A stretch of 64,000 nucleotides of DNA, from sequence record PX393110.1; one strand, given 5' to 3'. The position numbers and the translations under genes were made by a program. Positions 4,521-48,232 of the stretch are shown here, in pieces. Under the pieces are notes generated by a model. That model did no database searches and was not told the DNA's origin. It saw only the letters and a list, made by a program, of their open reading frames with translations. Position 1 is the first letter of the stretch; each line of letters begins with the position of its first letter. This stretch comes from a phage.

Positions 4521-4525
4521 TTTTA

Positions 4526-17903: not shown

Positions 17904-19541
17904 TTAGATGAGGGTCTGTAGGAACCACTCGGGCACTTGTCCCTTAAGGTTATCCAGCAGTCTCTGGAAGGATGGGTCCATCATGTAGGTTACTGCGAAA
18001 TCGTCATGGCTACGTACAGCACGACCACTACCCTGGATGATGGCTATCATAGGCTGGATATTATACCACTCCGGATCACGCACTTTCTTGCGCTCTACCC
18101 AGAGATCACCCAGGTTAGGATAGGAGATCTTGAAGAATACCTGGAATCTGGCAAGATCGCCATGTAAGTCCACGCCCTCCAGAATAGACGGAGACACGAT
18201 AATGCGACCAGGAGTCATCAGCTTAGTGATGTCTCGCACTTCCCTAGAGGTGGGAATGTACATACGGTCGGCATACTTACTTAACTTCTTGATCTCCTCA
18301 GCATTAGCATACGATGCAGAGTGAACCAGTCCGCAAGCAGTGTCATCTCCCAGTCCCTCCAGGAAGTTATCCAGAGCTTCTACATATTCCGGGAACACAT
18401 CCGCCTTAGTCTTGAAGTTCATGCTAGGAAGAGAACGTTCCACAATAAACGGACGATTCTCCAGAGGCCATGCATAATCAGTAGTGATTACTTCCGTATC
18501 ATCCATGCTCAGTTTCAGATCATAGATAAGATTAAACGGAGTAGCAGTCATCAGCAGACGATACTCTGGATGCATAATCAAGCTAGCTGAAGAGTCCAGT
18601 ACTTCCAGTGGCTTGAACTTAAACATCAGATCTCGCTCACCAGTATCTTCGTACAGTACCCACTGATCTGGATCCGTAGCGATGATTGTATTAATCCCGG
18701 ACACGGTCTCTGAAGCCAGGCTAGCTCGAGATTCCAGAGGTCCCAGTTTACTCGCGATCAGCGACTCTACCTGAGCCTTGTTACCGATAGCATCGAACTT
18801 CTCGATAGCCTTCTCCAGATCACGAATCTGAGCGTATAGAACAGATTTAGCCTGGGTAAGATATGGTAGCAGGTCGAAGATGTAGTTGATCTTGAAGTGC
18901 TTAGTCCTCTGAATCTCAGCAACCGGAATGTAATCCCCCATGTCGAATTCTGGAGTTAGGTCCATAAGACGACTGATGTTGATAGTAACTTCGGAGCGAT
19001 CAATAAGAGATCCTGGCAGAGTATGGGCTTCGTCCGCCACCAGCAGTCCTTCTGCAGTGTACTTACCATCCGCAGTAAAGAAGAATGCATAGTTAAGGTT
19101 CTTAAGTGGTGAATCTTTCCACGCATTACGAGCTGCCGCATACTCACAGCACCCGTCCGTCTTACGATAGCGACAGGTAGGGTGATGTTTCTTCTTCGGA
19201 GGAATGGGCAGAGTCAGGTCTGTGTGGCAGCTATAGTTCGTAGCACCCATCAACTGCTTCATATCCTTAAAGTCGCGAAGATACTGCTGCTGGAGAGCAA
19301 TCGTCTTGGTAATGAATAGAGAATCGGTCTCGAACAGCTGATTAATTACTTCGGCTACGATTCGAGAGATCCACGATTTACCAGCACCGGTAGGAGCATT
19401 CAGCAGCACCGTCTTCTTATTCTTATTAATGAACGCATCCAGAATCTTGATGATAGTTTCGCGCTGATTAGCTCGATAGCTAAAGTCCGGGAACGTCTCC
19501 TCCACTACGCTATCGAGGATTCCTTCGACATCATATTGCAT
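17904..19541 (-). CDS. SF2 helicase, DinG/XPD(Rad3)-like
   Basis: Walker A NAPTGAGKS and DEAH box LVADEAHTL. An intervening Cys cluster (YSCH...PTCRYRKTDGCCEY) is typical of Fe-S helicases. Confidence 0.7.
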   Translation of the reverse strand: MQYDVEGILDSVVEETFPDFSYRANQRETIIKILDAFINKNKKTVLLNAPTGAGKSWISRIVAEVINQLFETDSLFITKTIALQQQYLRDFKDMKQLMGATNYSCHTDLTLPIPPKKKHHPTCRYRKTDGCCEYAAARNAWKDSPLKNLNYAFFFTADGKYTAEGLLVADEAHTLPGSLIDRSEVTINISRLMDLTPEFDMGDYIPVAEIQRTKHFKINYIFDLLPYLTQAKSVLYAQIRDLEKAIEKFDAIGNKAQVESLIASKLGPLESRASLASETVSGINTIIATDPDQWVLYEDTGERDLMFKFKPLEVLDSSASLIMHPEYRLLMTATPFNLIYDLKLSMDDTEVITTDYAWPLENRPFIVERSLPSMNFKTKADVFPEYVEALDNFLEGLGDDTACGLVHSASYANAEEIKKLSKYADRMYIPTSREVRDITKLMTPGRIIVSPSILEGVDLHGDLARFQVFFKISYPNLGDLWVERKKVRDPEWYNIQPMIAIIQGSGRAVRSHDDFAVTYMMDPSFQRLLDNLKGQVPEWFLQTLI

Positions 19542-20497
19542 ATTAAGTTCTCTCTTCTGTCTAATACGGACTGGATGAACTCATCAGTACCATTCTGCAG
19601 TTTCCGTATTAGTAATTCCTCAGGATCCTCACCATCGCTGTAGACTACTCGCAGTTGACGAATACTCTTCACCTTCTGTCTTACGCTATTGCGCAGTTCA
19701 AAAGATAAATCCGTACTGTCAAGAAATATCTGACCTTCTTCCGGGAAGAACTGACTCATCATCCTGGCCTGGGTATCGGTGAGGAAAGATCCCTGGACAG
19801 CTAATGGGTTATCGTAGCCTAACAGCAACATTGCGAAAGCATCAAACATACCCTCGCATAAGCTGAACTTAGTCATACCTCCGTATAGACTAGTCTTCAG
19901 AGCACGATTCGGACTATAGATATACTTATCCCCAGGAGGAATATGGTATTTCCTTTTACCTATCGGCTCGTACAGACGCATCGTATAAGATATGATCTTA
20001 CCCTTAAAATACATCGGAGCTGCCACACCTACTCCCTTAAGTTCGCGGATCTGGAAATAATCTTCCATACCCTGTAGGAGCGGGTTGCGGTTAGCCAAAT
20101 ACTCTTTACAGAAATCAGAAGGAGGATCAAACATCCTCTCATACTGAATCTCTGGCACCGAAGATAAACTCCGGACTACCTGCTTATCAGAATGAGCTAT
20201 CCACCCACGGATAGTTAGCTCTAATTCTAACTCTTCCTTACTCTTATTCGAGAAAGGTATGAACTTACAATGGCAACGATGGCATATTCCAGTCTGCTTA
20301 TTGTAGTTCCAGTAAAATGTCCACTTAGAGTTCGGTTCCCCCATAAGTTCACAGGTGGGACACAGTCGGAGCTCCTCCCCCTTATGTTCGTTAGCTATCT
20401 GGACATTACCAGGATACTTATCTGCTTCGAACATGTAAACTCTGGGAGTAACCCTAACCAAGTATTCATTTATACGAGTTAGAGACTCAATTTCCAT
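19505..20497 (-). CDS. DNA primase (Zn ribbon + TOPRIM)
   Basis: CPTCELMG...CHRCHCKF zinc ribbon. TOPRIM-like SLCEGMFDAF and FLDSTD. Confidence 0.65.
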   Translation of the reverse strand: MEIESLTRINEYLVRVTPRVYMFEADKYPGNVQIANEHKGEELRLCPTCELMGEPNSKWTFYWNYNKQTGICHRCHCKFIPFSNKSKEELELELTIRGWIAHSDKQVVRSLSSVPEIQYERMFDPPSDFCKEYLANRNPLLQGMEDYFQIRELKGVGVAAPMYFKGKIISYTMRLYEPIGKRKYHIPPGDKYIYSPNRALKTSLYGGMTKFSLCEGMFDAFAMLLLGYDNPLAVQGSFLTDTQARMMSQFFPEEGQIFLDSTDLSFELRNSVRQKVKSIRQLRVVYSDGEDPEELLIRKLQNGTDEFIQSVLDRRENLICNMMSKESSIA

Positions 20498-20807
20498 AGA
20501 CTAAACTCTGACCCGCATGGATGCGTACTGCATGGTTCTTGTTAGAGTTAGTCAGACGAATCCACTTACCTTCGTCTGTAGAGAATACCTGAGCAGTTAA
20601 GCCCAGGTAAGATACAGAAAGATTAGAGATAGAGTCGACAGTTACCGTACTATCTACCGGAAACTCTACCGATGAGCCAGCTCCAACAATGTAGCCACTC
20701 TTACGCAGCTTCATTGGAGCAATACGACTACTGTGCTGATCGTCAGCACCAATTGTCCGAGCGAACGAGCTCTCAACGTAAACAGTTTCAGGAATATTAA
20801 TCTGCAT
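20487..20807 (-). CDS. small beta-barrel protein, possibly dUTPase-fold
   Basis: ATG at 20807. FSTDEGKWIRLTNSNKNHAVRIHAGQSLV loosely parallels dUTPase motifs 3-4 (GVIDSDYRGE..l.N.....i..GdRIAQL). Weak call. Confidence 0.3.
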   Translation of the reverse strand: MQINIPETVYVESSFARTIGADDQHSSRIAPMKLRKSGYIVGAGSSVEFPVDSTVTVDSISNLSVSYLGLTAQVFSTDEGKWIRLTNSNKNHAVRIHAGQSLVYGN

Positions 20808-21396
20808 TGCCAATAGTCTCTTTAACCAGGTGCTCTATTGAACTACCATGTGCCATATGGAGAAGAGACTGGAGAGTACCCATCCATACATCATCACTCA
20901 CTTCGTCTTTGTACTTATTGAAGCAGGTACTGAAGATGTTGCGGCAGTTCTCCAGCTCGCTTTCGCCAAAGAAGATGTTACCCATGCTGAACTCAGTCAT
21001 GATCTCACGAGATACCGCAATAGCATCTGCAACTTTACAGATGAACTTAGCTTCGGCAGATGCAGGAGTGCGGAAAGTAGGAAGTACCTCTTCCCAGATT
21101 TCCTGCTCAACTTTATTCAGAGTCTCTTTTAACTCTGGGAAGCGAGCCTTAGCAGTGTAGGGGACATCACCTGTAAAGATCTCTGGAATGTCGTGAACCA
21201 ACGAGTACTGATTTACTTCCAGACCCTGCTCAGCAGTTAAAAATCCATCCATCACCAGTTTCTGAACAATCAGAGTAGAGTAGTAAGTAACTTCGAAGCT
21301 ATGCTCCGAGATAGTAGAGCGATGAGACAGTACTTGCTTACCTGCGAAACGATTCACGTTATTGGTACACACTGGTACCTTAAAAAGATCTTTCAT
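20797..21396 (-). CDS. HD-domain 5'-deoxynucleotidase (YfbR-like)
   Basis: TISEHSFEV ... LVHDIPEIFTGDVP match YfbR (ENVSEHSLQV ... LYHDASEVLTGDLP). Confidence 0.7.
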   Translation of the reverse strand: MKDLFKVPVCTNNVNRFAGKQVLSHRSTISEHSFEVTYYSTLIVQKLVMDGFLTAEQGLEVNQYSLVHDIPEIFTGDVPYTAKARFPELKETLNKVEQEIWEEVLPTFRTPASAEAKFICKVADAIAVSREIMTEFSMGNIFFGESELENCRNIFSTCFNKYKDEVSDDVWMGTLQSLLHMAHGSSIEHLVKETIGNAD

Positions 21397-21415
21397 GTAA
21401 TTTCTCCTAAGTTAC

Positions 21416-21448
21416 AAAAATAAAGGTATGGAAGTTGCCTCCCACACC
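21416..21448 (-). terminator. promoter-proximal hairpin + U-run
   Basis: GGTGTGG...CCATACC followed by TTTATTTTT. The stem is 7 bp with one G-U pair that is valid only in minus-strand RNA. Confidence 0.4.
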
Positions 21449-21479
21449 TTAACAGCCTTTCGAGCCCTAAAAAGAGCGG
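21449..21479 (-). promoter_or_regulatory. class-1 motif copy 3
   Basis: CCGCTCTTTTTAGGGCTCGAAAGGCTGTTAA. It abuts the upstream stop (21480) and lies 52 nt before ATG 21396. Confidence 0.6.
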
Positions 21480-22553
21480 TTATTCCAGAATAAACGGAGA
21501 CTTATCCCCGAGGCGGTTCGCGACCCATTTCACGAATGGTGAATTAACCAGATGCTCGCACTGGATAGACATGTGAGCTCCAGTAGTCTTACATAGATAA
21601 TGAGCGCCTGCTAACCACATCATCACATCCAGAGTTGATCCTGGTTGGAACTCTCGACCAACATCTTCCATTACGTATTCTAGAATACTGTGATCGCTAT
21701 TATAACGAGAAGCAGCATCTTCAAGAGTAGCGATGTAATGCTGGAAGTAGGTACGGATCTTATACCAGGAATTAAGTGATCCGAGATCAATCGTAGTTAC
21801 CGGAGCTTCATTAATGTCGTCAACATAAGCTCGGATATTACTTACCTGCTTCTTGATGTTCGACACTTCCGGATACCAGTGGAGATCATCCGTCATCACC
21901 ACATAGTTGCCCATATCTACTTTGAGCATAGTTGCGATGATTTCCTGGATGATCGTGAACTCCACCAGATTAACGTTAGTCAATCCCCAGATTAGATCAT
22001 TACTACGGTTGAATACCGTGCAGTCCAGACCACCATTACGGTACTTAAACGATAGAGCAATGTTGCAGATCATATCTGCGGTATTGATGCTGCCAATGCT
22101 GTTTACCAGACCTACATCAGAATCACGGCTGGGATCGTGAATAGTAGCCACGCACTTACGGTTACCCAGGTCAGAACGGAGGCGGTCTGTTACAGTCTGG
22201 AGTTGATCGTAGTTATACAGACGCTCACCGTAAGCACCACGCCAGGTAACCATATCATCGCTAAACATCTTAGCGCGAGGAACCATAATCGACATCCAGT
22301 TATCGATTGCATAGCCACCAGACAGTACCCACAATACTTCCCCCATAATTCCGAGGATATTGTCTTTACGTTCTGGATGAGCCATCCAACGATTAATCGG
22401 ATTACTTAACTCAACTACAGCATGACCGATGGATACTACCGCCGAAGAGTTAACAGAAGTTCTGGACTTCTGCAACTCACCAGCCTTATCCATAGTATTG
22501 ATGCTGTTAACCAGGATTTCAGTATTACTGTTACCGCGAATTACCGAGATCAT
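21480..22553 (-). CDS. thymidylate-synthase-family pyrimidine dNMP hydroxymethylase/methylase homologue
   Basis: GEVLWVLSGG (ELLWFLQGD), YGERL, DQLQTVTDRLRSD..NRK (DQI..V...L..DP.SRR), catalytic-Cys segment DMICNIALSF, and NRSNDLIWGL (ThyA QRSCDVFLGL; T4 gp42 MRSNDVVFGF), DDLHWY. Extra C-terminal extension of about 100 aa. Confidence 0.7.
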   Translation of the reverse strand: MISVIRGNSNTEILVNSINTMDKAGELQKSRTSVNSSAVVSIGHAVVELSNPINRWMAHPERKDNILGIMGEVLWVLSGGYAIDNWMSIMVPRAKMFSDDMVTWRGAYGERLYNYDQLQTVTDRLRSDLGNRKCVATIHDPSRDSDVGLVNSIGSINTADMICNIALSFKYRNGGLDCTVFNRSNDLIWGLTNVNLVEFTIIQEIIATMLKVDMGNYVVMTDDLHWYPEVSNIKKQVSNIRAYVDDINEAPVTTIDLGSLNSWYKIRTYFQHYIATLEDAASRYNSDHSILEYVMEDVGREFQPGSTLDVMMWLAGAHYLCKTTGAHMSIQCEHLVNSPFVKWVANRLGDKSPFILE

Positions 22554-23272
22554 TTAGAGTCCTTACGCACTGAATCAATAGACTTAACTGCAGAGGACAG
22601 TAACTCCAGACGGGCCTCCTGAGGGATCATACCAGATGGCTCGTTCAGGATCATAATACCTTTACCAGTATTAGTAAAACGAGCTGTGATTGATCCAGGA
22701 TACACCGGATGATTCAGAGTTACAGAATTACACAACGCAGCACCGAATCGCTCCTCGTAGGCACGCATAGTTACCTTAAGGAGAGTAGAACTGACTGCTA
22801 CAGAGTATTCAGGATCAACAACACGGAAGTTATTGTCCTCAATACTCTTATCCTTCGTATTGAAGAACAGAGTCATGTTATAATAATCAATAGACTCGTT
22901 ACTGAGACGTAATGCCTCATCACGAGCTTCCTGGCTGGCAAACATACTGTTATGCAGCAGGAAGTAAACGTACGAATCGAATACCGCACGATCACTGACG
23001 ATCAACTCGCCACGATTGTAGGCATCCTTGAACATCTGAGTTCGCTGACGAATAAGACGCAGCTGGAACTCTACCGCTTCCATAGGATCTTCTACAGCTA
23101 AGCGCAGAATATCCATATGGGATGTTACTCCCAGAGGAAGATGGTCACGAGTCTGTACTGCACGGAAGGTACATTCGGTTGATTCTTCCCAACCTTTAGC
23201 CAGGGTAGATTTACCGGTACCCTGCGCACCAGACATAATTACACTGTAGCCTGGGATACTATAGTCTCTCAT
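22550..23272 (-). CDS. P-loop nucleotide (dNMP/deoxynucleoside-type) kinase
   Basis: P-loop SGAQGTGKST and DRAVFDSYVY (dNK/TMPK-like). ATG at 23272 with GGAGAG RBS. ATGA overlap with the next gene. Confidence 0.6.
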   Translation of the reverse strand: MRDYSIPGYSVIMSGAQGTGKSTLAKGWEESTECTFRAVQTRDHLPLGVTSHMDILRLAVEDPMEAVEFQLRLIRQRTQMFKDAYNRGELIVSDRAVFDSYVYFLLHNSMFASQEARDEALRLSNESIDYYNMTLFFNTKDKSIEDNNFRVVDPEYSVAVSSTLLKVTMRAYEERFGAALCNSVTLNHPVYPGSITARFTNTGKGIMILNEPSGMIPQEARLELLSSAVKSIDSVRKDSK

Positions 23273-23304
23273 TATTCTCTCCAATTAAGAATCTTTCCCA
23301 CATT

Positions 23305-23335
23305 TTAACAGCCTTTCAAGACCCTAAAAGAGCGG
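23305..23335 (-). promoter_or_regulatory. class-1 motif copy 4
   Basis: CCGCTCTTTTAGGGTCTTGAAAGGCTGTTAA, 32 nt before ATG 23272. Confidence 0.6.
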
Positions 23336-23361
23336 ACTAAAAAGGCTGGTGTAAATGTGAA

Positions 23362-24333
23362 CTAGCTAAACTTATACCAGCGAGGTCTCATACGGATCTC
23401 GTGATTCAGTTTATGTAGTTTCGAGAATTCGCAGAATGAGTTGGTGAACATCTGGCGAGTATAGAATCGCTCATCCTCTGGCATGAAGTGGAACCATTTC
23501 TCCGGTTCCCATGAATACCCGAAATGTGCACATATCTCTTTGATGTTCTGATACCACCATTCCACGAATACCTGATAACCACAGGGAGGATTCTGGTCAT
23601 TAATCATGTACCATACCCCATCCTGAGTCCCAGGTCCACATACGATAGCGTCATTATCTGTATACGCAGTCTCTTTAGAGTAGGACATAGTTGCCCAGCA
23701 TTGATATGCCATGAACGGACCTAATCCAGATACCTGTAACAGATGCTCGATAGCCTCGGTAGCGAACGGAGACTTCCATGCCCATAAGATAGGATCACTG
23801 TAGGTCTTCACCAGATAGGCTCTGGCAGCTACACTGTACTTAATATCCTCTGGACATACTTCATTAGCCATCTTAACTGCTGTGCTAAGGAAGTAGGCAT
23901 TTGATTGCTGTGGAGCGGTGAACGGAGGACCATCCTCATAACGACGTAGCTCTTCGCGACCCATGTTATGTATGTCGTCATAGCTCATCTCATAAAGAGG
24001 AAGGACTCTGCGGAAGCGATCCATATATGAATCACCACGGTTTATCATCTGGAAGAGTACTACATTAAGTGCTTTACTCTCCCAGCTTAAAGAATCGTTC
24101 TCCAGAATGTTCTTAATAGCCCACACTGTTTCACGATCGTGCTTACGGAACACGTTAGTGAATTTGAACTTACTAATCCACTTATGTTCCGTCCACGGAG
24201 GAGGCAGCTTAAGCACCTCCTTCTTATAATAAACCTCTGTACGTTCACGGTTATACTCCACATACTCCCGTAACTCCTCAGGATTTATCATCCCAAGGAG
24301 TCCTTCGTAATGCAGACCTAACGGTGTTGACAT
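23362..24333 (-). CDS. hypothetical protein inside the modification island
   Basis: ORF track. TAATG coupling to the upstream glycosyltransferase. Trp/Tyr-rich. A DNA base-modification enzyme (for example pyrophosphorylase-type) is suspected from context only. Confidence 0.35.
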   Translation of the reverse strand: MSTPLGLHYEGLLGMINPEELREYVEYNRERTEVYYKKEVLKLPPPWTEHKWISKFKFTNVFRKHDRETVWAIKNILENDSLSWESKALNVVLFQMINRGDSYMDRFRRVLPLYEMSYDDIHNMGREELRRYEDGPPFTAPQQSNAYFLSTAVKMANEVCPEDIKYSVAARAYLVKTYSDPILWAWKSPFATEAIEHLLQVSGLGPFMAYQCWATMSYSKETAYTDNDAIVCGPGTQDGVWYMINDQNPPCGYQVFVEWWYQNIKEICAHFGYSWEPEKWFHFMPEDERFYTRQMFTNSFCEFSKLHKLNHEIRMRPRWYKFS

Positions 24334-25412
24334 TAAAGAATACCTTCTTTGGTAAAGTAGTCGATTACTTCATCCTGAAGTTCTTGTGCGTAATCCTTGC
24401 GCAGATACAGATTCTCATACTGATGTTTCAGCAGAGCATCACGATCTTTCAGTTTCTCTGCAATCTCCGCATTACTGGAGACGATCAGAGGAGCCAGCAG
24501 CTCTTCGGGGACGCCGCTCCGGATTATTGTTCCGGCAGCATCTTTATCCACCAACATCAGAGTACCAGAGCTCAGGTATTCATAATAACGGTTAGGTGGG
24601 CTGGTATAGAACGAGTTACTAGAGTTCCAGTCTTCAATAAGCAGTACCGCTGCGTATTTAGCCACTTCATCCAGCATCTCTGACAGCTTAAACTTAGGCA
24701 GCCAGTTAATAGGAGCAGCAGGCCCCAGCCACTTACGTTCTTTAGGATCCAGCTCTTCCCAGTTTTCCTGCTCGTAGCCGTCAAATCCAGCAAGACCACC
24801 AGTATGTTTAGCGATAGACATCTGAGCTTTGTAGCTAGGCACCGACATAAACAGTTCCAGACCATCCTGCTGGGAGAAGTACTGAGTGAACTTATGGAAG
24901 CGACCTTCACGAGCAGCACCGTAATACAGCAGGCTATTGTCTGGTTTATCAGATGAGCCGTAGCGAGGCTTACGACCAGGAACGTAGGTAAGACGGTTCC
25001 AGTTAATGTGGTGATAGTTCTCTTCGCTAGGGGAGTACTGATTACCCCAGGAAGTACGCTCGAATGCTGCTACTACTTTAAATGTCGTAGCTGCTGTGAT
25101 GTGTCGCCACTGCGGACCCTGGATACGCATACGTGATGAATAATCTTGACCAATCCAGTAAAACTTAGCTCCGAGGTCCGCCTGGTCTACCCAGAATTTA
25201 TACATCTCATCGCGGAACTTACAGAAGGTAGGAACACCATTGACGGCGATGATCACGTCATATTTGGTGCCATCTTCCATAGCCTTAACAAACTTAGGAG
25301 TATCATCCAGCAAGTCCGCCTGAAGTCCGTAGGCTAACCAGGATGCCAGAGTGTTACTGGCGATGATGGATTTATCGCTGCATGGCGAAAAGTTAGTTAC
25401 TGCAATTTTCAT
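24333..25412 (-). CDS. GT-B glycosyltransferase resembling T4 DNA beta-glucosyltransferase
   Basis: From memory of T4 BGT: MKIAVTNF (MKIAIINM), YDVIIAVN (YDRLIVVN), LLYYGAAREGRF (VIYGGSFRSGQR), AAVLLIEDWNSSNSFYTSPPNRYYEYLSSGTLMLVDKD (AALIIGDKNYNDNFITLRVWETMASDAVMLIDEE). Same length class (359 vs about 351 aa). Confidence 0.6.
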   Translation of the reverse strand: MKIAVTNFSPCSDKSIIASNTLASWLAYGLQADLLDDTPKFVKAMEDGTKYDVIIAVNGVPTFCKFRDEMYKFWVDQADLGAKFYWIGQDYSSRMRIQGPQWRHITAATTFKVVAAFERTSWGNQYSPSEENYHHINWNRLTYVPGRKPRYGSSDKPDNSLLYYGAAREGRFHKFTQYFSQQDGLELFMSVPSYKAQMSIAKHTGGLAGFDGYEQENWEELDPKERKWLGPAAPINWLPKFKLSEMLDEVAKYAAVLLIEDWNSSNSFYTSPPNRYYEYLSSGTLMLVDKDAAGTIIRSGVPEELLAPLIVSSNAEIAEKLKDRDALLKHQYENLYLRKDYAQELQDEVIDYFTKEGIL

Positions 25413-25440
25413 ATTTAATTTCTCCGTAGGCTGTCACAAT

Positions 25441-25470
25441 GTAACAGCCTTTTAGCTCATCAAAGAAGCG
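25441..25470 (-). promoter_or_regulatory. class-1 motif copy 5 (variant)
   Basis: CGCTTCTTTGATGAGCTAAAAGGCTGTTAC, 28 nt before ATG 25412. The upstream stop lies inside the motif. Its 3' block forms the hairpin AGGCTGT/ACAGCCT. Confidence 0.5.
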
Positions 25471-26494
25471 AATTAGCTGATGCCCAACTCAGCCACTTAT
25501 CATTGAGATCAGTTAAGTAGGAATAGTCTTTGTTTAATCCGAATACCGTACGGTTAGTTCCATCGAACTTCATTACCCCAGCACCAGGAGCTCGGATAAT
25601 TGCATCTTCGGTAGCCGTACAATACTCTTTCAAGTATTCCTGGATGTTGGGACGAATACGACGGAACGAGCTATCTGCAGAGTCATAGTGGAACATATCT
25701 GCACAATGCCACTGTACGTAGGACTTATCTGGACGGCTAAGCAGCTCATTACGAGTTACCATATCTTTCGGAGAGTAGCCTAGCTTAGCTACGGTGACTT
25801 CGTGAATACCACCGCCATTAGAAGAGGTGTCCATTAACCAGTTCTCATCCCAGTAGAACGAGCTACCAGTACCGGTTACCTGGCCCACTTTCCATCCCAT
25901 CGCCATACCTTTAAACAACAGGTAGCAATCCTCACCTACAGTGAGTTGCTGGAAGGTCTTATCGAACAGCCAGAACATCTTCTCGCTAGTCTTGACCATA
26001 ATACCCAGGTCAGTAGCCGGAGCAGTGTTATTATGGGACTGACGATCGCAGAGTTCAACAATCTTGTAGTTACGGTTCTTGAAGCTACGGACGAACGCCA
26101 TCTCAAACTCAGATCCCTCGAAGTCGATAATGGACCGATCCAGATGGAAGATATCGTCGGCGAACCAGACATCATCATCCACGAAGTAGCAGATGTCTGG
26201 GCACCAGTCCTGCTTCTCCATTACAATCCATGCTTTATCCAGAGCATGGGCACGGATTTCTCCGATTACCGGATTTTCGTACTTAGGGCTATGACAGAAA
26301 TTAAATTGCTCATCCCCACCAAACTGCTCTTCCAGAATTGCCTTATCTTCTTCGGAGGCATCCTGAATAAAGTAGAAGAAGCGATACTCAATAGAGTCGT
26401 CAGTCTTTTTAGCATCTTTGAACGACTGAATCTGACGGAGTACCGACTTCAGACGATGATAGGTTGGGATGATAAAAGCTACTTTGGTGGTCAT
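25460..26494 (-). CDS. GT-A (GT2-like) glycosyltransferase
   Basis: N-terminal VAFIIPTYHRLKSV and the DXD-type motif FVDDDVWF. Confidence 0.65.
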   Translation of the reverse strand: MTTKVAFIIPTYHRLKSVLRQIQSFKDAKKTDDSIEYRFFYFIQDASEEDKAILEEQFGGDEQFNFCHSPKYENPVIGEIRAHALDKAWIVMEKQDWCPDICYFVDDDVWFADDIFHLDRSIIDFEGSEFEMAFVRSFKNRNYKIVELCDRQSHNNTAPATDLGIMVKTSEKMFWLFDKTFQQLTVGEDCYLLFKGMAMGWKVGQVTGTGSSFYWDENWLMDTSSNGGGIHEVTVAKLGYSPKDMVTRNELLSRPDKSYVQWHCADMFHYDSADSSFRRIRPNIQEYLKEYCTATEDAIIRAPGAGVMKFDGTNRTVFGLNKDYSYLTDLNDKWLSWASANSLL

Positions 26495-26500
26495 AATTAT

Positions 26501-27112
26501 TTATCCAATTTGACGAACTAAGCGAAACCCTTCGGCGTACGGCCACTGGGCGGAATATCCACGTAAGGTGGCTAGGGCTAAGATACTCTGGGTATCTCGG
26601 TCTGACTTAATCTGGGAGTCGAATCGTCCCATAGCCTGGCACTTACACTCAATATCGTCCTTATTCAGACGCTCGAAGTAATTAGGTTCCATCTGACCGA
26701 ACTGGGTCAGGGACTCGGCATACTCATATTCCAGGATAAGCCAGTTATACGCTCGGAGAGCTACACGAGCAGCATGATTAACTAGTTGATGGTCCTGGTG
26801 TAGGCTACTGAACGGAATATAGACTACATCCGGCCTGATTTTAGCAACATAGTCCGCAATATCCTTAGCCAATTGCGGAATATCCTTCTGAGTCATACCA
26901 TCGCCTGTGGAGGCATCGTTACGCTCCAGGCAATGTACTTCTTTGATATTCGGATAGACACCGAATGCTGCTTCGGCTTCGCCACGACGGGTCTCGTCCG
27001 GAGCAGTTACTTCGAGGATGAAGAATTGGTCATCGCGGAATTTGCTCATAATACCTCCGCAACCCAGAATCTCATCATCGTGATGTGGGCTGATAATCAG
27101 TCGTGACTTCAT
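26501..27112 (-). CDS. PIG-L/LmbE-family N-acetyl-sugar deacetylase
   Basis: IISPHHDDEILGCGG (family motif PHPDDE..G.GG) and the downstream SLHQDHQ metal-binding motif. Confidence 0.75.
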   Translation of the reverse strand: MKSRLIISPHHDDEILGCGGIMSKFRDDQFFILEVTAPDETRRGEAEAAFGVYPNIKEVHCLERNDASTGDGMTQKDIPQLAKDIADYVAKIRPDVVYIPFSSLHQDHQLVNHAARVALRAYNWLILEYEYAESLTQFGQMEPNYFERLNKDDIECKCQAMGRFDSQIKSDRDTQSILALATLRGYSAQWPYAEGFRLVRQIG

Positions 27113-27129
27113 TATTAATCCTCGCTACA

Positions 27130-27163
27130 CAAAAATGGGGTTAGGCCGTAGAGACCTAACCCC
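27130..27163 (-). terminator. promoter-proximal hairpin + U-run
   Basis: GGGGTTAGG-N9-CCTAACCCC followed by ATTTTTG. It lies between class-1 copy 6 and ATG 27112. Confidence 0.45.
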
Positions 27164-27179
27164 GTACGCCTCTGACACC

Positions 27180-27210
27180 TTAACAGCCTTTTAGGTCATC
27201 AAACAGGCGG
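27180..27210 (-). promoter_or_regulatory. class-1 motif copy 6
   Basis: CCGCCTGTTTGATGACCTAAAAGGCTGTTAA, 67 nt before ATG 27112. The BCCT stop lies inside the motif. Confidence 0.55.
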
Positions 27211-28581
27211 AGTTTCCTTAGCCAAGAATACTTTAGGTACAAAGATCTTGAGGAACCCGAATAGAATACACAATACCCCAATCAGTACCGGAACAGCCGA
27301 TACAGCTACCAGAGTCTTCGTTACAGTTACTACGTCGCCACCTGCCCAGTTAAGTGCAGCAGCAACTACACCCATGCTTACAATCCAGAATACACGAGTT
27401 CTAGGAGCGGTCATGGACTCTACCGTAATACCTGCTGAGTCATGACCTGTAATAAAGAACAGGATCACAGACACGAGGGTAATTACCGAGAATATCCATC
27501 CGCCTGGGAAATTAGCCAGAAGCTGGAAGATATCCTGAGCACCATGTTGTAGACCAGCTACACCGAATACGGTAAACCAGACGTTACTGATGATGGTAGG
27601 GAACAGTACACATCCGAGGATCAGTTCGCGAATAGTACGGCCGTAAGAGATACGTGCCACAAACGCTCCGACGAATAATGCCCAACCTACCCAGGCTGCA
27701 TAGTAAGCATAAGGCCAGCTAGCCAGCCATTGCTTCTCTTCAGCAGTACTGCCGATGTTTACTGACATAGGAATAATCTGGAGCAGATAGCTACCAGAAT
27801 AGGTGATGGTCTTCCAGAGGTATTCGAAGAATGTACCACTTACAGCAACGAATGCCATAATAGATAGAGCTACGATTACATTATATCTGGATAACCACTT
27901 AACCCCACGATCGACACCAGTTACGGCACTAAGTACAGTACCCAGAGTCAGGAGCGCGATAATGGTGTAAGGACCAACATCCACTCCCAGGAACTCTTTA
28001 AATCCGGAACTGATCGGGCCTACTGCGTAGACGAACGACAGGGTTAAGCCTATGATGGTAGAGAAGAGTAAGCTTATCGTATTAAGGTTATTCAGAGCTC
28101 GGGACTTGAATAACTGATTAAGCGGACGGTCTTCACCACGTACATGCAGTAAGTACCCGAATGCCACCCCTACGACTGCATAAACTGCCCATGCGTTAAG
28201 TCCCCAGTCAAAGAAGGTAGTTACCATATTCTGACGTTCGGACATACCCTCCTGCTGATGGTACATAGGTTCGAGTACACCATAATAAATCATGGATACA
28301 CCCATACCGGTACTAAACATCATGGAGTAATAGGTAAAGCGATTATATTTCGGAGCACCTTTACCCAGCTTAATGTTACCATGCTTGCTGAATACAAAGA
28401 ATGCCAGGAACGCTAGGAAGATCAGCGAAGACCAGGTAAATATGAATCCATACTGAGATATGAATACAGACTTACTCCAGTCCATTACAGCACCAAACTG
28501 GGTGGGAGCTAACATAATGGCGAGTATGATACCCACCGTTACTAGCACCGTCCCCCAGGTAACTACCTTTGAATCTGACAT
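27199..28581 (-). CDS. BCCT-family (betaine/carnitine/choline-type) transporter
   Basis: Polytopic membrane protein. SWPYAYYAAWVGWALFVGAFVARISYGRTIRELILGCVLFP aligns with the BCCT signature region (BetP [41 protein letters not shown]). Confidence 0.8.
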   Translation of the reverse strand: MSDSKVVTWGTVLVTVGIILAIMLAPTQFGAVMDWSKSVFISQYGFIFTWSSLIFLAFLAFFVFSKHGNIKLGKGAPKYNRFTYYSMMFSTGMGVSMIYYGVLEPMYHQQEGMSERQNMVTTFFDWGLNAWAVYAVVGVAFGYLLHVRGEDRPLNQLFKSRALNNLNTISLLFSTIIGLTLSFVYAVGPISSGFKEFLGVDVGPYTIIALLTLGTVLSAVTGVDRGVKWLSRYNVIVALSIMAFVAVSGTFFEYLWKTITYSGSYLLQIIPMSVNIGSTAEEKQWLASWPYAYYAAWVGWALFVGAFVARISYGRTIRELILGCVLFPTIISNVWFTVFGVAGLQHGAQDIFQLLANFPGGWIFSVITLVSVILFFITGHDSAGITVESMTAPRTRVFWIVSMGVVAAALNWAGGDVVTVTKTLVAVSAVPVLIGVLCILFGFLKIFVPKVFLAKETPPV

Positions 28582-28584
28582 TGA

Positions 28585-29493
28585 TTATTCCTCAATTACG
28601 CCCTTAGCGATTAACTGGCGACGGACGTATGCGTAGCCAGCAGGTGAAGTAGCGAGGACGATGTCCGCACTACGGAAGTTGGTTTCGATATAGAAGCACT
28701 CCTGAAGATCCCGCGTACAGAAGAGCTCAGTGCTCATCATACCCTCGCGTACGTTACATGCGTCTGCAACGAATTGCGCAACATCTTCGAAGTGGTCTAC
28801 CGAATGACTATAGCCGAATCCACGGGCATCAGTAGATATAACGTAGTTATGGCAGTACGGAGTGAAGTCAGTATCTTCGTAGGATTTACCCTGGATAGTG
28901 AAAATATCTGCATAATCCTTGAACCCGCTCGGGCTAACCAGAAGATCCCAGGCAACTACCATACCGTCGATAACATCTGCTTGAAGTACCAGAGAAGTAG
29001 TATATTCGTCCGGCGCCTTATCACAGACCAAAATTGGGGAGTCCCCCAGAAGGTCCGACATAGTGCCTGCACCCTTGCCCCCGTGAACACGATCACGGCG
29101 TACAAACGCCTCCTGAGGCTTCTGGTACAGTCTAAACGACGGTACAATCAGCGAATCAGGCATAGTTCCCAGATTAGCTTCGGAGCGAAGGCAGGATAAT
29201 TGGTCAGCTTTAGACCACGTACTTTCGATAGCGTGCAGATCGTTACCGATTTTGGTATAGATGTAGCTTTCCGGATTGCGGTACTTACCCTGATTCAGCT
29301 CTTCGATAACCGAGTCGAAATAAGGAAGTCGTACTGATCCCTCACGAGGAGCAGTTAACGCTACTGAACCATGCTTGGTATGATCCTGATCAACTACCAT
29401 AACCTGGTCCAGACTTACACCCATCTTAAGAATCTGGGATAGTGTAGCTGCTGTGTGGTTAGTGCAGCCAATCATCAAATCTAACTTCTTCAT
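28585..29493 (-). CDS. ATP-grasp-like ligase
   Basis: Gly-rich loop RVHGGKGAGT and the C-terminal CFYIETNFRSAD (E-x-N-x-R Mg-ATP motif of ATP-grasp enzymes). Moderate support. Confidence 0.45.
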   Translation of the reverse strand: MKKLDLMIGCTNHTAATLSQILKMGVSLDQVMVVDQDHTKHGSVALTAPREGSVRLPYFDSVIEELNQGKYRNPESYIYTKIGNDLHAIESTWSKADQLSCLRSEANLGTMPDSLIVPSFRLYQKPQEAFVRRDRVHGGKGAGTMSDLLGDSPILVCDKAPDEYTTSLVLQADVIDGMVVAWDLLVSPSGFKDYADIFTIQGKSYEDTDFTPYCHNYVISTDARGFGYSHSVDHFEDVAQFVADACNVREGMMSTELFCTRDLQECFYIETNFRSADIVLATSPAGYAYVRRQLIAKGVIEE

Positions 29494-29520
29494 TTTAATT
29501 CCTCAGTTAACTTGTACAAC

Positions 29521-29550
29521 CTAACAGCCTTTCGAACCCTAAAAAGAGCG
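29521..29550 (-). promoter_or_regulatory. class-1 motif copy 7 (variant)
   Basis: CGCTCTTTTTAGGGTTCGAAAGGCTGTTAG, 27 nt before ATG 29493. Confidence 0.5.
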
Positions 29551-29564
29551 AAATAATAGATATC

Positions 29565-29586
29565 TAGCCACCTCGTAAGATGGCTA
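29565..29586 (-). terminator. hairpin after methyltransferase gene
   Basis: TAGCCA-N10-TGGCTA followed by an AU-rich tract, upstream of class-1 copy 7. Confidence 0.3.
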
Positions 29587-29594
29587 TGTATATA

Positions 29595-30335
29595 TTACTT
29601 TAATTCGGAGAGATCTGCTATCTTCACCTTAGCTGTTACATCCCAGATTCCTTCACCAAATCCGGTATCTTCCAGCAGCTTAGGCACTTCACGTTTCTGT
29701 ACCTTAGACTGCTCGTACTTAAGCAGAGGAATATTACCGGTCTTATCCGATTGATCCCACAGATAAGTAGCAGCACCAATGTTATCGAACAGTGCGAGAT
29801 CTGGATTAAACTGGGTAAGGAGTCGGCAGTCCCAGTGAGATTTATGTTCCTCGAAAGGATTAGTCTCCGTACCACGCTGACGATACTCGTAGTTAGGAGT
29901 ACCGATCACGATTTTAGCCTTAGACTGGAATAGCTTAGACAACACCATAAGCCCATCTTCGCTATCCAGATGCTCCAACACATCTAGCCAGATAATAGTG
30001 CCGAATTTATCCAGCTCTTCAATAGGAAGATCTTTCAGCAGTTCAACGATATTGCAGATGTAGATATCGCTATATACATTTACACTGCCTTTGATGTAGT
30101 CTTCGCAGATGTCCAGACCTGTGATCTGACCTTCGAATCCTGCGTTACGGAGAGCTAGACCGATCTCTCCACGACCTAATCCCATATCCAGGATTGGCCC
30201 GGAGATAATTTCGTTACGGAGCATCCATTGGAGAAAGTGCTTCTGGACTAAGTAGGAGGTACCTCCGTTGCCCAGTGAAGCCTTCGTGACCTTAGTACCA
30301 GGAACGAAGTTACACTCGATATGTTTACCAAACAT
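29595..30335 (-). CDS. class I SAM-dependent methyltransferase
   Basis: Motif I ILDMGLGRGEIGLAL, acidic motif II GLDI, and IIWLDVLEHL. Confidence 0.7.
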   Translation of the reverse strand: MFGKHIECNFVPGTKVTKASLGNGGTSYLVQKHFLQWMLRNEIISGPILDMGLGRGEIGLALRNAGFEGQITGLDICEDYIKGSVNVYSDIYICNIVELLKDLPIEELDKFGTIIWLDVLEHLDSEDGLMVLSKLFQSKAKIVIGTPNYEYRQRGTETNPFEEHKSHWDCRLLTQFNPDLALFDNIGAATYLWDQSDKTGNIPLLKYEQSKVQKREVPKLLEDTGFGEGIWDVTAKVKIADLSELK

Positions 30336-30361: not shown

Positions 30362-30392
30362 TTAACAGCCTTTGGAGCCGTAAAAGAAGCGG
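30362..30392 (-). promoter_or_regulatory. class-1 motif copy 8
   Basis: CCGCTTCTTTTACGGCTCCAAAGGCTGTTAA, 26 nt before ATG 30335 and 12 nt downstream of a canonical UUCG terminator. Confidence 0.65.
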
Positions 30393-30439: not shown

Positions 30440-31687
30440 TTACAGTTTACCGATCATCTTCTGAATCATCTCATCAGAAGTCTGATTCTCTACCTTAGCA
30501 CGACGCTCTTGCAGATTAGCAATGCGGTCGTCGTGATCTTTCTTACGCAACATGCTAATGCTACGGCTAAGGCAGGAATTCAACACTTCCTGGGTAATAC
30601 CGAGAGCTTTGATGATCTGAGCATCAGACTTATCCTGCATAACCAGCTCGCCCACTTTAGGAAGAATCTGGTAAATCTCGATGTCTCGGTCAATCTTCTT
30701 AAGCGACTCAGTCTTATGGACGGAGAATGCCTGATTGTAGAGAGCCATCGTGACTGCAATCCAGTCGCGAATACCCATCGTCACCAATTGGCCATTATAA
30801 GCTACCTGGATACGATGCGAGCGGTTCATGTAAGCAATATTCATGCATGCTTCGTGAACCTCGTCCATATCGATGGTTCTGATACGTGGAGCCTTCATTA
30901 CTCGGATATAGATCTTATCCTTGGACATGTTCTTGACCAGGATCTTACCTTCGGACAGCCACTTATTCAGGAAGCCGATGCGAGGAGTAATCACCTCACC
31001 AGACCCGATGATGTCGATGGTATCGGTATTGACACGAGTCACCTTAAGGCTAAGACCGAGGCGACCTACACCAGTTTCCCACAGCTGCTTAAGGTCAGAC
31101 TTAGCAGGCACGATATCGTAACCGTACTGAGCCTTAAGCAGATTGTAGTCATCATGCTCATAAGCATCCAGCAGTGACTCATAGGTGAACGCTGGAATAC
31201 GAGACTGAATCCCCGTAGCCCATGAGAAGGTACCGTACATCAGAGCATACGGAATCGGCACCGGAAGGTACGCATATTCCATCTTCTCTTCACCTTCCAC
31301 CTGCGGAACATAGTCCGCTAAGCCGAAGTAGTACTCTGCACGATCTTCGTTCAGGCCAACCTTCGTGTAACGAGGAGCCGCACCAGGTACTTCTTCCAAC
31401 AGTTTCACACCGAAGGAACCCTGACCATCAATAGCTCCGATACGAGCCAGACGAGAGATAGTTCCATCGATAGACTGGTCGCCGAATGGGTGGAGCGACT
31501 GAGTCTCGGAGATAGCACTCAGAGTCCCAACCAGCTTCCCGCGAGCAATGCTATTCAGCGCCATGTAGATACGACGCTGAGCAGGAATCAGGCCATCGAT
31601 ACCAGGAACTACACGATGAAGAGCACAGTACACACTGTAGTCAGTGTAGTTCTTGGTGATGAATTCAGAAATCTTTACCTGTTCCAT
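30440..31687 (-). CDS. type II DNA topoisomerase, GyrA/T4 gp52-like cleavage subunit
   Basis: DGLIPAQRRIYMAL and the catalytic-Tyr segment GAAPRYTKVGL (GyrA AAMRYTE). Confidence 0.8.
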   Translation of the reverse strand: MEQVKISEFITKNYTDYSVYCALHRVVPGIDGLIPAQRRIYMALNSIARGKLVGTLSAISETQSLHPFGDQSIDGTISRLARIGAIDGQGSFGVKLLEEVPGAAPRYTKVGLNEDRAEYYFGLADYVPQVEGEEKMEYAYLPVPIPYALMYGTFSWATGIQSRIPAFTYESLLDAYEHDDYNLLKAQYGYDIVPAKSDLKQLWETGVGRLGLSLKVTRVNTDTIDIIGSGEVITPRIGFLNKWLSEGKILVKNMSKDKIYIRVMKAPRIRTIDMDEVHEACMNIAYMNRSHRIQVAYNGQLVTMGIRDWIAVTMALYNQAFSVHKTESLKKIDRDIEIYQILPKVGELVMQDKSDAQIIKALGITQEVLNSCLSRSISMLRKKDHDDRIANLQERRAKVENQTSDEMIQKMIGKL

Positions 31688-31689
31688 AA

Positions 31690-33675: not shown

Positions 33676-33711
33676 AGTTTCTCCGGTCAGGTTTAAATAA
33701 GCTCGCACAGT

Positions 33712-40459: not shown

Positions 40460-40909
40460 TTACCCCATACTTGATAAAGAGATAGACTTTTCGTCTAGTT
40501 CGCATACCTCCGTGATTAAAATCAGGTATTCGTAATTATCTTTATCATTGATTAGTTTATCCATATTCAAGGTGATCGTGAATCGATCATCTATGCTAAT
40601 AGCTTCCTTGACCGCATCTTCCACTGCTTTAATCAGGTTAGATACATCGCGAGTCCAGAATGATTGGCTGAACGAGAATATCATGCGGATATTCAACATC
40701 ACGGACTTACCTTTATATGGCAGAAATGCTTCTCTAGCTCCCTGCATATCTAAGGAGGATTTCACCCACTCCTTAAAGTCCTTGATGCTAGGGTCGAGAT
40801 AGACCCACGATCTTCCTCCACGAGCCCTCCCGACTTTATACATTTCGTTCACGGAGGGGAAATTCCCTCCGTATTGCAGAATGTAGTTATGAGTTCCTAA
40901 TACTTCCAT
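40460..40909 (-). CDS. RusA-like Holliday-junction resolvase
   Basis: RDVSNLIKAVEDAVKEAISIDDRF matches the RusA D-x-D-N-x-x-K...D...DD pattern. Size fits (149 aa). Confidence 0.5.
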   Translation of the reverse strand: MEVLGTHNYILQYGGNFPSVNEMYKVGRARGGRSWVYLDPSIKDFKEWVKSSLDMQGAREAFLPYKGKSVMLNIRMIFSFSQSFWTRDVSNLIKAVEDAVKEAISIDDRFTITLNMDKLINDKDNYEYLILITEVCELDEKSISLSSMG

Positions 40910-48050: not shown

Positions 48051-48080
48051 TTAACAGCCTTTCGAGTCATCAAAAGAGTG
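48051..48080 (-). promoter_or_regulatory. class-1 motif copy 14
   Basis: CACTCTTTTGATGACTCGAAAGGCTGTTAA, followed about 30 nt later by a hairpin plus U-run. Confidence 0.55.
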
Positions 48081-48232
48081 TTAAGTTGCCCGCTCCCTAT
48101 CACCGAGCACTGTGATGATGGGAAATAGGGAGCGAAACGATTCCTAAGTTTTATCTTCTTCTCTAAGTGATTAACCGTTACATACGATATACCTTCTTAG
48201 TTAGATAAGCCGGAATTGGCACTTCGAACACT

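Follow-up and report, generated by a model that had tools for sequence, protein, structure and literature searches.

What is the purpose of eleven genes that lie between the primase and the topoisomerase genes of an Escherichia coli phage, nearly all of which are annotated as hypothetical in the records of its closest relatives? The window analyzed here, a stretch of 64,000 nucleotides of phage DNA (sequence record PX393110.1), shares 96.6% identity with Escherichia phage vB_EcoM_IME392 and 94.7% with EP_H11, and the genes in question form an island of eleven minus-strand open reading frames (ORFs) at 20487-30335, numbered o1 to o11 in coordinate order. Here it is proposed that the island probably encodes a two-stage thymine hypermodification pathway, in which 5-hydroxymethyluracil (hmU) DNA is made first and then receives a tailored amino-sugar adduct. 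A preliminary description had taken the island for a hypermodification system in which a hydroxymethyl-pyrimidine is glycosylated and tailored, a reading upheld by homology, by a confident structural model resembling the T4 DNA beta-glucosyltransferase (BGT) and by gene-neighbourhood statistics. Of its eleven gene assignments, eight stand.

Pool-editing genes and the modified base

The question of which base is modified is addressed by the first four genes of the island:

20487..20813, minus strand: o1, 108-aa protein overlapping the end of o2, with the likely true start at the ATG at 20807
20797..21396, minus strand: o2, HD-domain 5'-deoxynucleotidase, YfbR-like (Pfam YfbR-like 1.7e-14, HD_3; PHROG 7076 5.9e-19)
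21480..22553, minus strand: o3, thymidylate synthase (TS) homologue (Pfam Thymidylat_synt 4.7e-12; PHROG 3676 7e-71)
22550..23284, minus strand: o4, P-loop kinase (Pfam AAA_28 2.1e-9; PHROG 2107/761 'thymidylate kinase')

The o3 product conserves the catalytic Cys163 and an RSND motif at residues 183-186, and its nearest phage homologues are those of Ackermannviridae (41%), the deoxyuridine monophosphate (dUMP) hydroxymethyltransferase of PhiW-14 and the enzymes of SPO1-like phages. It matches the enzymes of hmU phages at E 1e-49, versus E 0.4 for T4 gp42, the deoxycytidine monophosphate (dCMP) hydroxymethylase. The position of the gp42 Asp is occupied by Val in o3, followed by Asn one position later, as in gp58 of phage M6. 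The TS family, the catalytic Cys and the RSND motif had all been noted before and stand; however, the use of RSND as a pointer to T4 dCMP hydroxymethylase does not, because the motif is also found in the M6 dUMP hydroxymethylase and therefore says nothing in favor of cytosine. Since o3 is related to the dUMP hydroxymethylases of hmU phages and lacks the gp42 Asp, the modified base is, judging from sequence, almost certainly hmU in replacement of thymine and not a cytosine derivative, and o3 would be a dUMP hydroxymethylase producing 5-hydroxymethyl-dUMP (hm-dUMP).

The HD residues H32 and H68-D69 of o2 are in place, in agreement with its earlier assignment as a YfbR-type nucleotidase, and the TS-then-HD gene order of o3 and o2 is also that of gp58 and gp59 in M6; o2 may deplete the pool of thymidine mono- and triphosphate (dTMP/dTTP). 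The nucleotide kinase assignment of o4 is likewise sustained, with a Walker A motif (GAQGTGKS) at residues 19-26. As the 'thymidylate kinase' match is accompanied by an overlap of the o4 and o3 frames, which are translationally coupled, o4 is probably an hm-dUMP kinase, the alternative being phosphorylation of hmU in DNA. It has no match to PF18748 (E>0.1) or phrog_800, to which the validated hmU DNA kinase M6 gp54 belongs. The description of the o1 product as dUTPase-fold-like is not supported, as it matched nothing when Pfam, NCBIfam, PHROGs and PDB were searched, even with permissive thresholds; a counterpart with 57% identity is kept at the same position in the related metagenomic lineage L003, and o1 is therefore a real gene. 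Altogether, homology supports the formation of hmU DNA through editing of the nucleotide pool.

A glycosyltransferase of the T4 BGT type

What would be placed on this base depends on o6:

24333..25412, minus strand: o6, GT-B glycosyltransferase of the T4 beta-glucosyltransferase type (hhalign, AlphaFold2 model, Foldseek)

Word-indexed protein searches returned only 2-4 homologues each for o6, o7 and o10, and tblastn of these three against 50,697 phage records found IME392 and EP_H11 only; a full HMMER search retrieved 269 o6 relatives. In a 101-sequence alignment of this family, Y163, G165, R168, R171, D261, R275, Y277 and E278 are invariant and D90 is present in >=90%. The family profile aligns to T4 BGT by hhalign with 95.8% probability (E 7e-9); the alignment has 293 columns and takes in residues 1-348 of 351. 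In this alignment D90 corresponds to BGT Asp100, and R168, R171, R275 and E278 correspond to Arg191, Arg195, Arg269 and Glu272. We take Asp100 to be the catalytic residue of BGT and the other four to contact uridine diphosphate (UDP). The AlphaFold2 model of o6 has a predicted local distance difference test score (pLDDT) of 92 and a predicted template modelling score (pTM) of 0.89, and T4 BGT occupies Foldseek ranks 1-4 in PDB (E 1e-13 to 9e-11, TM-score about 0.64). The bacillithiol glycosyltransferase BshA is also among the fold matches, at E 4e-7. Direct similarity is marginal, with a pairwise BLASTP E of 0.008 between o6 and T4 BGT; phmmer of o6, o7 and o10 against PDB sequences gave nothing, and hmmsearch of the o6 family profile against PDB sequences did not retrieve BGT, which was recovered by profile-profile and fold comparison only. 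The claim that o6 tracks T4 BGT along its whole length is borne out by these comparisons, and by its predicted fold o6 is a two-Rossmann-domain GT-B enzyme of the T4 BGT type.

The acceptor of this enzyme family was approached through its gene neighbourhoods, in 80 viral contigs from IMG/VR (L018-L097) that encode the o6 family and were scanned with local HMMs; some are near-duplicates, and the counts are not independent. A TS homologue and/or a member of PF18723, the family of the o5 product, was found near the GT-B gene in 49/80 loci (PF18723 in 42, TS in 41, and HD in 25), and ParB and/or a TET/JBP dioxygenase in 26/80. No locus had both contexts (0/80) and 5/80 had neither, the two sets being mutually exclusive across the 80 loci. 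The ParB-dependent TET/JBP enzymes of phages have been described as thymine dioxygenases that make hmU (PMC13229309). Both the TS route and the ParB/TET/JBP route are expected to yield hmU, which therefore points to hmU in DNA as the acceptor, an hmU-generating context accompanying the GT-B family in 75/80 viral loci. For o6 itself we infer the same acceptor; structure and context support a BGT-type enzyme that would glycosylate a hydroxymethyl-pyrimidine, most likely hmU.

The PF18723 gene shares its strand with the GT-B gene in 42/42 loci, lies within 3 kb of it in 41 and adjoins it in about 15. A P-loop kinase of either type is not nearby in most GT-B/PF18723 loci, a class I methyltransferase gene is near the GT-B gene in 11/80 loci, and a BCCT transporter gene in 0/80. 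Fusions of TS or PF18723 with the glycosyltransferase were considered for the viral loci and rejected, as these are separate adjacent genes. A radical-SAM/SPASM enzyme often accompanies the TS/PF18723 context (31 loci), as does a 150-aa 'SWKKRGG' protein without a Pfam family (32 loci).

One more locus, L016 (Logan SRR19193838), encodes a 784-aa protein with the BGT-like domain at its N-terminus, next to genes for PIG-L, sugar epimerase/dehydratase, hexapeptide acyltransferase, DegT aminotransferase, methyltransferase, YfbR-like HD protein and dCMP deaminase. From its gene content it looks like another, independent amino-sugar DNA-decoration cluster.

The PF18723 protein

The gene next to o6 encodes a protein that had been called an orphan and proved to belong to PF18723:

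23362..24333, minus strand: o5, 323-aa PF18723 protein ('HMUDK_hel', formerly aGPT-Pplase1; Pfam 4.8e-35)

The o5 start codon overlaps the o6 stop codon. Its product aligns with M6 gp55, RP13 ORF120 and Maynard_81 of a ViI-like phage, having RP13 ORF120 as the nearest homologue (33% identity, E 3e-46). Despite the name of the family, o5 was rejected as a 5-hydroxymethyldeoxyuridine DNA kinase: the validated kinase of M6, gp54, is a 187-aa P-loop protein of PF18748 (7.7e-18) and phrog_800, o5 matches gp55 (PF18723) instead, and no Walker A motif or P-loop was found in its sequence. The amino-acid:DNA transferase (AADT) of M6, gp51, belongs to PF18724 (1.4e-46). In M6, gp54 and gp51 are enough for the first two steps, gp55 having been omitted from the minimal reconstitution, and the kinase domain of SP10 gp186 is active without its C-terminal domain (PMC8989533).

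The presence of aGPT-Pplase1 in RP13, EP_H11 and IME392, with no detectable 5-HMUDK, has been reported (bioRxiv 10.1101/2025.03.26.645540). No match to PF18748 or PF18724 was found among the window ORFs scanned, which were those of at least about 170 aa and part of those of 110-170 aa. PF18723 is a marker of thymidine hypermodification through 5-hydroxymethyldeoxyuridine, and its presence, with PF18748 and PF18724 not found, gives the island this hallmark without the canonical kinase and transferase chemistry.

Tailoring genes

The remaining five genes are candidates for completing the adduct:

25460..26494, minus strand: o7, probable GT-A (GT2-like) glycosyltransferase (sequence motifs, SpsA profile match)
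26501..27112, minus strand: o8, PIG-L/LmbE N-acetyl-sugar deacetylase (Pfam PIG-L 6.7e-14, 52.9 bits versus a cut-off of 28.2)
27199..28581, minus strand: o9, BCCT-family secondary transporter (Pfam BCCT 4.3e-92, multiple transmembrane segments predicted)
28585..29493, minus strand: o10, 302-aa soluble protein, directly upstream of the BCCT gene in every case
29595..30335, minus strand: o11, class I S-adenosylmethionine (SAM)-dependent methyltransferase of small-molecule type (weak Pfam/PDB matches)

The o7 product has an N-terminal IIPTYHR, a DDD at 106-108 and an ED at 188-189, all invariant in six homologues. The best PDB match of its family profile is SpsA, the archetypal GT2 enzyme (E 0.015), in an alignment that starts at the N-terminus and runs through the DXD motif, and o7 has no Pfam match even at E 5. 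The motifs are GT-A-like, and the earlier GT2 assignment is plausible only; o7 may add a second sugar or N-acetylhexosamine (HexNAc). The deacetylase call for o8 is firm, and the enzyme is likely active because its metal-binding motifs, PHHDDE (residues 9-14) and HQDH (105-108), are intact; a weak NCBIfam match to BshB1 was also found.

The BCCT transporter is a clear member of its family, with 309 bits over positions 1-481 of the 485 of the BCCT model, and its nearest solved relative is BetP (2.6e-48). Its Trp box is kept in transmembrane segment 4 (W/W/Y) and in part in segment 8 (AYYAAWVGW versus FYWAWWISW). Among isolated phages, BCCT genes are essentially those of IME392 and EP_H11 alone. 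Less can be said of o10, which has four homologues only, no Pfam match and an AlphaFold2 model with pLDDT 39, too low for a fold search. Its motifs R133..GGKGAG, Q171..G177 and E270-x-N-x-R274 line up with ATP-grasp hallmarks; however, the suggested ATP-grasp assignment gains nothing from Pfam or from profile comparison, since hhalign against the genuine ATP-grasp genes of lineages L003 and L007 gives a probability of 0.1%, and o10 is possibly an ATP-grasp-like ligase. For o11, the methyltransferase assignment agrees with matches to Pfam Methyltransf_25 (4e-5, below the cut-off) and several related methyltransferase families, NCBIfam UbiG (1.2e-5) and PDB 3dli (9e-5), as well as a motif I (ILDMGLGRG); the DPPY motif is absent.

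Comparative anatomy of related loci

Four related metagenomic lineages were compared with the island:

L003/L099 (60-90% identity): the whole island minus o11; the extras are a GT32-like gene, another paralogue of o7, a gene of the phosphatidylserine-decarboxylase type, a genuine ATP-grasp gene and one encoding a CxxCxxCC protein
L008 (about 40% for the o6 homologue): methyltransferase, decarboxylase/ATP-grasp module, PIG-L, GT-A, GT-B and PF18723, with no BCCT or o10
L007 (30-40%): PIG-L, GT-A, decarboxylase/ATP-grasp module, GT-B, kinase and TS, with no PF18723
L098 (36-39%): GT32-like gene, o10-like gene and BCCT, in that order

TS, kinase, GT-B, GT-A and PIG-L are kept at 30-75% identity (L003, L007 and L008) and form the core of the system. 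The methyltransferase o11, missing from L003 and represented by a methyltransferase at the equivalent place in L008, is a variable member. The o10-BCCT pair is also found in L003, L099 and L098, down to 36-39% identity, and is a conserved, swappable accessory module. The BCCT protein (27199-28581 versus 6839-8221 in L003) is 89% identical between the two, and the neighbouring decoration genes 63-76%, so that BCCT is the best conserved of the decoration genes o5-o10.

A second accessory module, absent from the window, occurs at 3750-5860 in L003, 1684-3909 in L007, 6422-8098 in L008 and 3602-5712 in L099. Its parts are a phosphatidylserine-decarboxylase-like protein whose N-terminus is hydrophobic, an ATP-grasp enzyme and a tiny membrane peptide, with the CxxCxxCC protein as a further part in L003, L007 and L099. 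This set replaces or accompanies the o10-BCCT pair, and its content suggests that an amino acid is ligated to the same scaffold and then decarboxylated there. The two modules would then be alternative decorations of the freed sugar amine, one ligating and decarboxylating an amino acid and the other importing and attaching a ready-made compound.

The GT32-like DXD glycosyltransferase of the L003, L099 and L098 islands has a homologue in the window, a 263-aa ORF at 45393-46184 on the minus strand (26% identity, E 5e-14), which is therefore a further candidate decoration gene 15 kb outside the island.

Gene order and a shared promoter-like motif

The island was confirmed as eleven co-oriented genes between the primase and topoisomerase genes, with a helicase and a 1099-aa family-A polymerase (PolA) beside the primase on the same flank:

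19505-20497: Toprim-type primase, flanking the island on the o1 side
30440-33708: topoisomerase IV-A/GyrB-like genes, flanking the island on the o11 side

The promoter-like motif AAAGGCTGTTA has 19 exact copies in the window, on the minus strand only, with 0.8 expected when one mismatch is allowed. Six of these copies are in the island:

21450..21460, minus strand: AAAGGCTGTTA upstream of o2
23306..23316, minus strand: AAAGGCTGTTA upstream of o4
25442..25452, minus strand: AAAGGCTGTTA upstream of o6
27181..27191, minus strand: AAAGGCTGTTA upstream of o8
29522..29532, minus strand: AAAGGCTGTTA upstream of o10
30363..30373, minus strand: AAAGGCTGTTA upstream of o11

Other copies are found upstream of the PolA and GyrB-like genes. 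The six sites divide the island into six gene pairs, each headed by its own promoter-like site and expressed together with the replication genes; the motif is thus common to both, as the preliminary description had it, but it does not serve each gene singly. Further minus-strand sites include 3658, 14265, 17866, 33713, 39158, 44365, 48052-48909 and 50245, and a T-rich stretch, GCTCTTTTTAGGG, is often just ahead of the motif. The motif spans the whole early/replication region and ends where the plus-strand structural module starts.

Proposed pathway and alternatives

In the first stage of the proposed pathway, before replication, o3 would turn dUMP into hm-dUMP, o4 would phosphorylate it toward the triphosphate, the HD nucleotidase o2 would drain thymidine nucleotides, and the phage PolA would build hmU-containing DNA. 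In the second stage, on the DNA polymer, o6 would move a sugar from a host nucleotide-sugar onto the hydroxymethyl group of hmU in a base-J-like linkage. The PF18723 protein o5 would act with o6 or alongside it, the two genes being translationally coupled. The GT-A enzyme o7 may then extend the adduct by another sugar; one or more of the sugars would be HexNAc, from which the PIG-L enzyme o8 would strip the acetyl group and expose the amine. The weakest steps are those of tailoring, where o10 and BCCT are speculated to import and attach a small compound of quaternary-ammonium type and o11 to methylate the product. An order of deacetylation, acylation with an imported carboxylate and methylation is consistent with the comparative data. 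The pathway is predicted to leave thymine with a bulky and probably cationic sugar adduct, which would block host nucleases.

Several observations weigh against this pathway. IME392 was apparently sequenced by standard methods, and its adduct is therefore no polymerase block, unlike that of YerA41 or RP13. The M6 homologue of o5, gp55, is dispensable in reconstitution (PMC8989533), and the cooperation of o5 with o6 is argued from gene linkage only. The assignment of o7 to GT-A is marginal (E 0.015), o10 was matched to no fold by Pfam, profile comparison or its AlphaFold2 model, and some phages have sets of PIG-L, glycosyltransferase and methyltransferase genes whose known or suspected uses are different.

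The likeliest alternative, which also counts against the pathway as drawn, is that the BCCT gene is an auxiliary host-fitness gene, for example for osmoprotectant uptake in infection, with its position incidental and o10 unrelated to DNA chemistry. Osmoprotection is the normal role of BCCT transporters, the gene is missing from L008, which otherwise keeps the modification core, and none of the IMG/VR GT-B loci carries it. Nevertheless, in four lineages, with identities down to 36-39%, the gene is always found within the island and immediately after o10; it shares a promoter with o10 and is, among isolated phages, essentially limited to the IME392/EP_H11 group. This explanation is doubtful but keeps a substantial minority chance. 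The specific opposite, that BCCT imports a quaternary-ammonium metabolite of the glycine betaine, carnitine or choline type and that o10 joins it covalently to the de-acetylated amino-sugar on hmU in DNA, is by itself unlikely; if true, BCCT would be the first viral nutrient transporter devoted to modifying DNA bases, thymine would carry a permanently cationic glyco-adduct, and PF18723 would be a functional partner of BGT-like glycosyltransferases and not of an hmU DNA kinase.

A phosphate-activated route is rather improbable. Here hmU in DNA would be phosphorylated by o4 or a host kinase, and o5 would displace the phosphate with a nucleophile, possibly a BCCT-imported compound such as choline, or keep it as a bridge, the sugars being built on the linker in adducts like those of SP-15, YerA41 and Carin-5. 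PF18723 is a paralogue-type partner of the AADT enzymes, the nearest o5 homologue is from RP13, and o4 adjoins o5 in a way that echoes the M6 gp54-gp55 pair and the SP10 gp186 protein, which combines a kinase with a C-terminal domain; also, the modified T of Carin-5 and YerA41 bears phosphate and sugars (PMC12686479). However, o4 matches neither family of the M6 kinase, AADT (PF18724) was not found among the window ORFs scanned, and PF18723 is without any demonstrated activity. Moreover, the GT-B gene of L007 adjoins kinase and TS genes without a PF18723 gene, and in most GT-B/PF18723 loci neither type of P-loop kinase is nearby.

There is a slim chance that o6-o11 act off the DNA, on a bacillithiol/mycothiol-like small-molecule glycoside or in virion protein glycosylation, and that only o2-o5 concern DNA. 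BshA and BshB1 appear among the matches of o6 and o8, the PIG-L genes of Mycobacterium and Arthrobacter phages are annotated as 'glucosaminyl deacetylase', mycobacteriophage sets of glycosyltransferases and methyltransferases glycosylate capsids, and a transporter suggests small-molecule metabolism. Against this, T4 BGT fits o6 about a million-fold better than BshA (1e-13 versus 4e-7), the family is found in hmU-generating contexts in nearly all of the viral loci surveyed, the o6 stop overlaps the start codon of the PF18723 gene, and the island lies between replication genes with their promoter motif and not that of the structural module. An envelope-polysaccharide role for the decoration enzymes was also considered and is unlikely, because they lack transmembrane segments, BCCT being the sole island product predicted to have them.

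Finally, a T4-like cytosine system, with o3 as a dCMP hydroxymethylase and o6 glycosylating 5-hydroxymethylcytosine (5hmC), is barely credible and was rejected for o3: o6 does resemble T4 BGT, which acts on 5hmC, RSND is common to o3 and gp42, and 5hmC-acting phage GT-B enzymes are documented (bioRxiv 10.1101/2023.12.21.572611), but the hmU-phage affinity of o3 (gp42 only at E 0.4), the Val at the gp42 Asp position, the RSND of the M6 enzyme, the M6-like pairing of YfbR-type HD and TS genes, and PF18723, specific to thymidine-hypermodifying phages, all point to uracil.

Other features of the window and implications

Two minus-strand ORFs at 5330-6898 and 8777-10291 match the largest subunit of RNA polymerase, Rpb1 domains 1-2 and 3-5, respectively, which indicates a split multisubunit phage RNA polymerase; the genomes of close relatives are only about 111-116 kb. 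The motif AAAGGCTGTTA may be the promoter of this polymerase. Other minus-strand ORFs are a 174-aa match to the anti-CBASS phosphodiesterase Acb1 at 4014-4538 (Pfam 2.7e-6, just at the cut-off) and a 921-aa fusion at 34385-37150 of a calcineurin-like nuclease domain, an SMC/Rad50-type ATPase and a zinc hook, SbcCD-like in one polypeptide. This fusion is followed by genes for a 5'-3' exonuclease (37147-38004) and a RusA resolvase (40460-40909).

Phage DNA hypermodifications govern escape from restriction and CRISPR and are a source of enzymes for DNA labelling and sequencing chemistry. The combination of TS homologue, PF18723 and BGT-like glycosyltransferase is a widespread uncharacterized system, present in over half of the 80 viral contigs that were sampled for this glycosyltransferase family, and the island, being in culturable E. 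coli phages, is directly open to study. It could yield the function of PF18723 (aGPT-Pplase1), the tailoring of DNA sugars and a test of viral metabolite import for DNA. If the adduct is a simple glucosyl-hmU, base-J-like chemistry would still be extended to coliphages.

Comparison with known systems

The sequence has been public since 2018, and IME392 and EP_H11 have been predicted to be T-modified (bioRxiv 10.1101/2025.03.26.645540; PMC12686479). Thymine hypermodification associated with sugars, HexNAc and deacetylases has been reported for Carin-5, YerA41 and SP-15, the modified T of Carin-5 being associated with hexose, HexNAc and a deacetylase gene (PMC12686479), and phage GT-A/GT-B enzymes place glycans on 5hmC (bioRxiv 10.1101/2023.12.21.572611). 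The pathway had been presented as undescribed; this holds for the enzyme set, which is uncharacterized, but not for the pathway as a whole, given the 2025 predictions of T-modification and the known glycan hypermodifications of DNA. New here are the identification of the GT-B gene, the statistical association of BGT-like glycosyltransferases with PF18723, and the recognition of the deacetylase-o10-BCCT-methyltransferase tailoring set. For a phage DNA hypermodification island, it is unusual to bring along a small-molecule importer.

As in T4, the island has a TS-family hydroxymethylase, a deoxynucleoside monophosphate kinase and a GT-B DNA glycosyltransferase within the replication block, and o6 aligns with BGT over its whole length, keeping the positions of the catalytic Asp and the UDP-binding Arg and Glu. 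In contrast, the island base is almost certainly uracil-derived and that of T4 cytosine-derived, the direct similarity of the enzymes is marginal, as detailed above, and the island has six further tailoring genes, none of which is in T4. The M6, ViI, PhiW-14, SP10 and PaMx11 systems (Lee et al. 2018, 2021) share with it a homologue of dUMP hydroxymethylase with an HD hydrolase gene beside it, a PF18723 gene and, as predicted here, the post-replicative decoration of hmU; however, their defining PF18748 kinase and PF18724 transferase were not found here, and glycosyltransferases take their place.

The RP13-like phages (SP-15, YerA41, Carin-5 and RP13) have oligosaccharide-modified T and a PolA fused to uracil-DNA glycosylase (UDG), and IME392/EP_H11 were placed in this polymerase group by its authors (PMC12686479). 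The polymerase trait of the group is a length of >900 aa with an N-terminal UDG-like domain; the PolA of the window, with 1099 aa, has DNA_pol_A at the C-terminus, and its N-terminal 415 aa have no Pfam match. A gene block with glycosyltransferase and deacetylase lies beside the polymerase in both cases, and the PF18723 protein of RP13 is, as noted, the closest to o5. On the other hand, those genomes resist standard sequencing and carry a C5 linker and phosphate, and BGT-like, BCCT and o10 genes are not reported for the four phages. In the 5hmC clusters (Pyle et al. 2024) and the ParB-dependent T-dioxygenase systems (PNAS 2026), BGT-like GT-B and GT-A enzymes also build mono- to trisaccharides including HexNAc on hydroxymethyl-pyrimidine DNA, and members of the o6 family adjoin ParB and TET/JBP genes; here, unlike in both, the hydroxymethyl group would be made before replication by the TS homologue, and tailoring by deacetylase, transporter, o10 and methyltransferase is not described there.

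The bacillithiol and mycothiol pathways (BshA/MshA GT-B, BshB/MshB PIG-L and a ligase) follow the same logic, in which N-acetylglucosamine is added, the acetyl removed and the free amine acylated. The acceptor is inferred to be DNA here, whereas it is malate or inositol there, and the ligase step (o10) is putative, making this a mechanistic analogy and not a membership. Base J of kinetoplastids (beta-D-glucosyl-hydroxymethyluracil) differs in the GT-A fold of its glucosyltransferase, in the origin of its hmU from thymine oxidation and in receiving no further tailoring, but it is what the first product predicted for the island resembles, a sugar O-linked to hmU in DNA.

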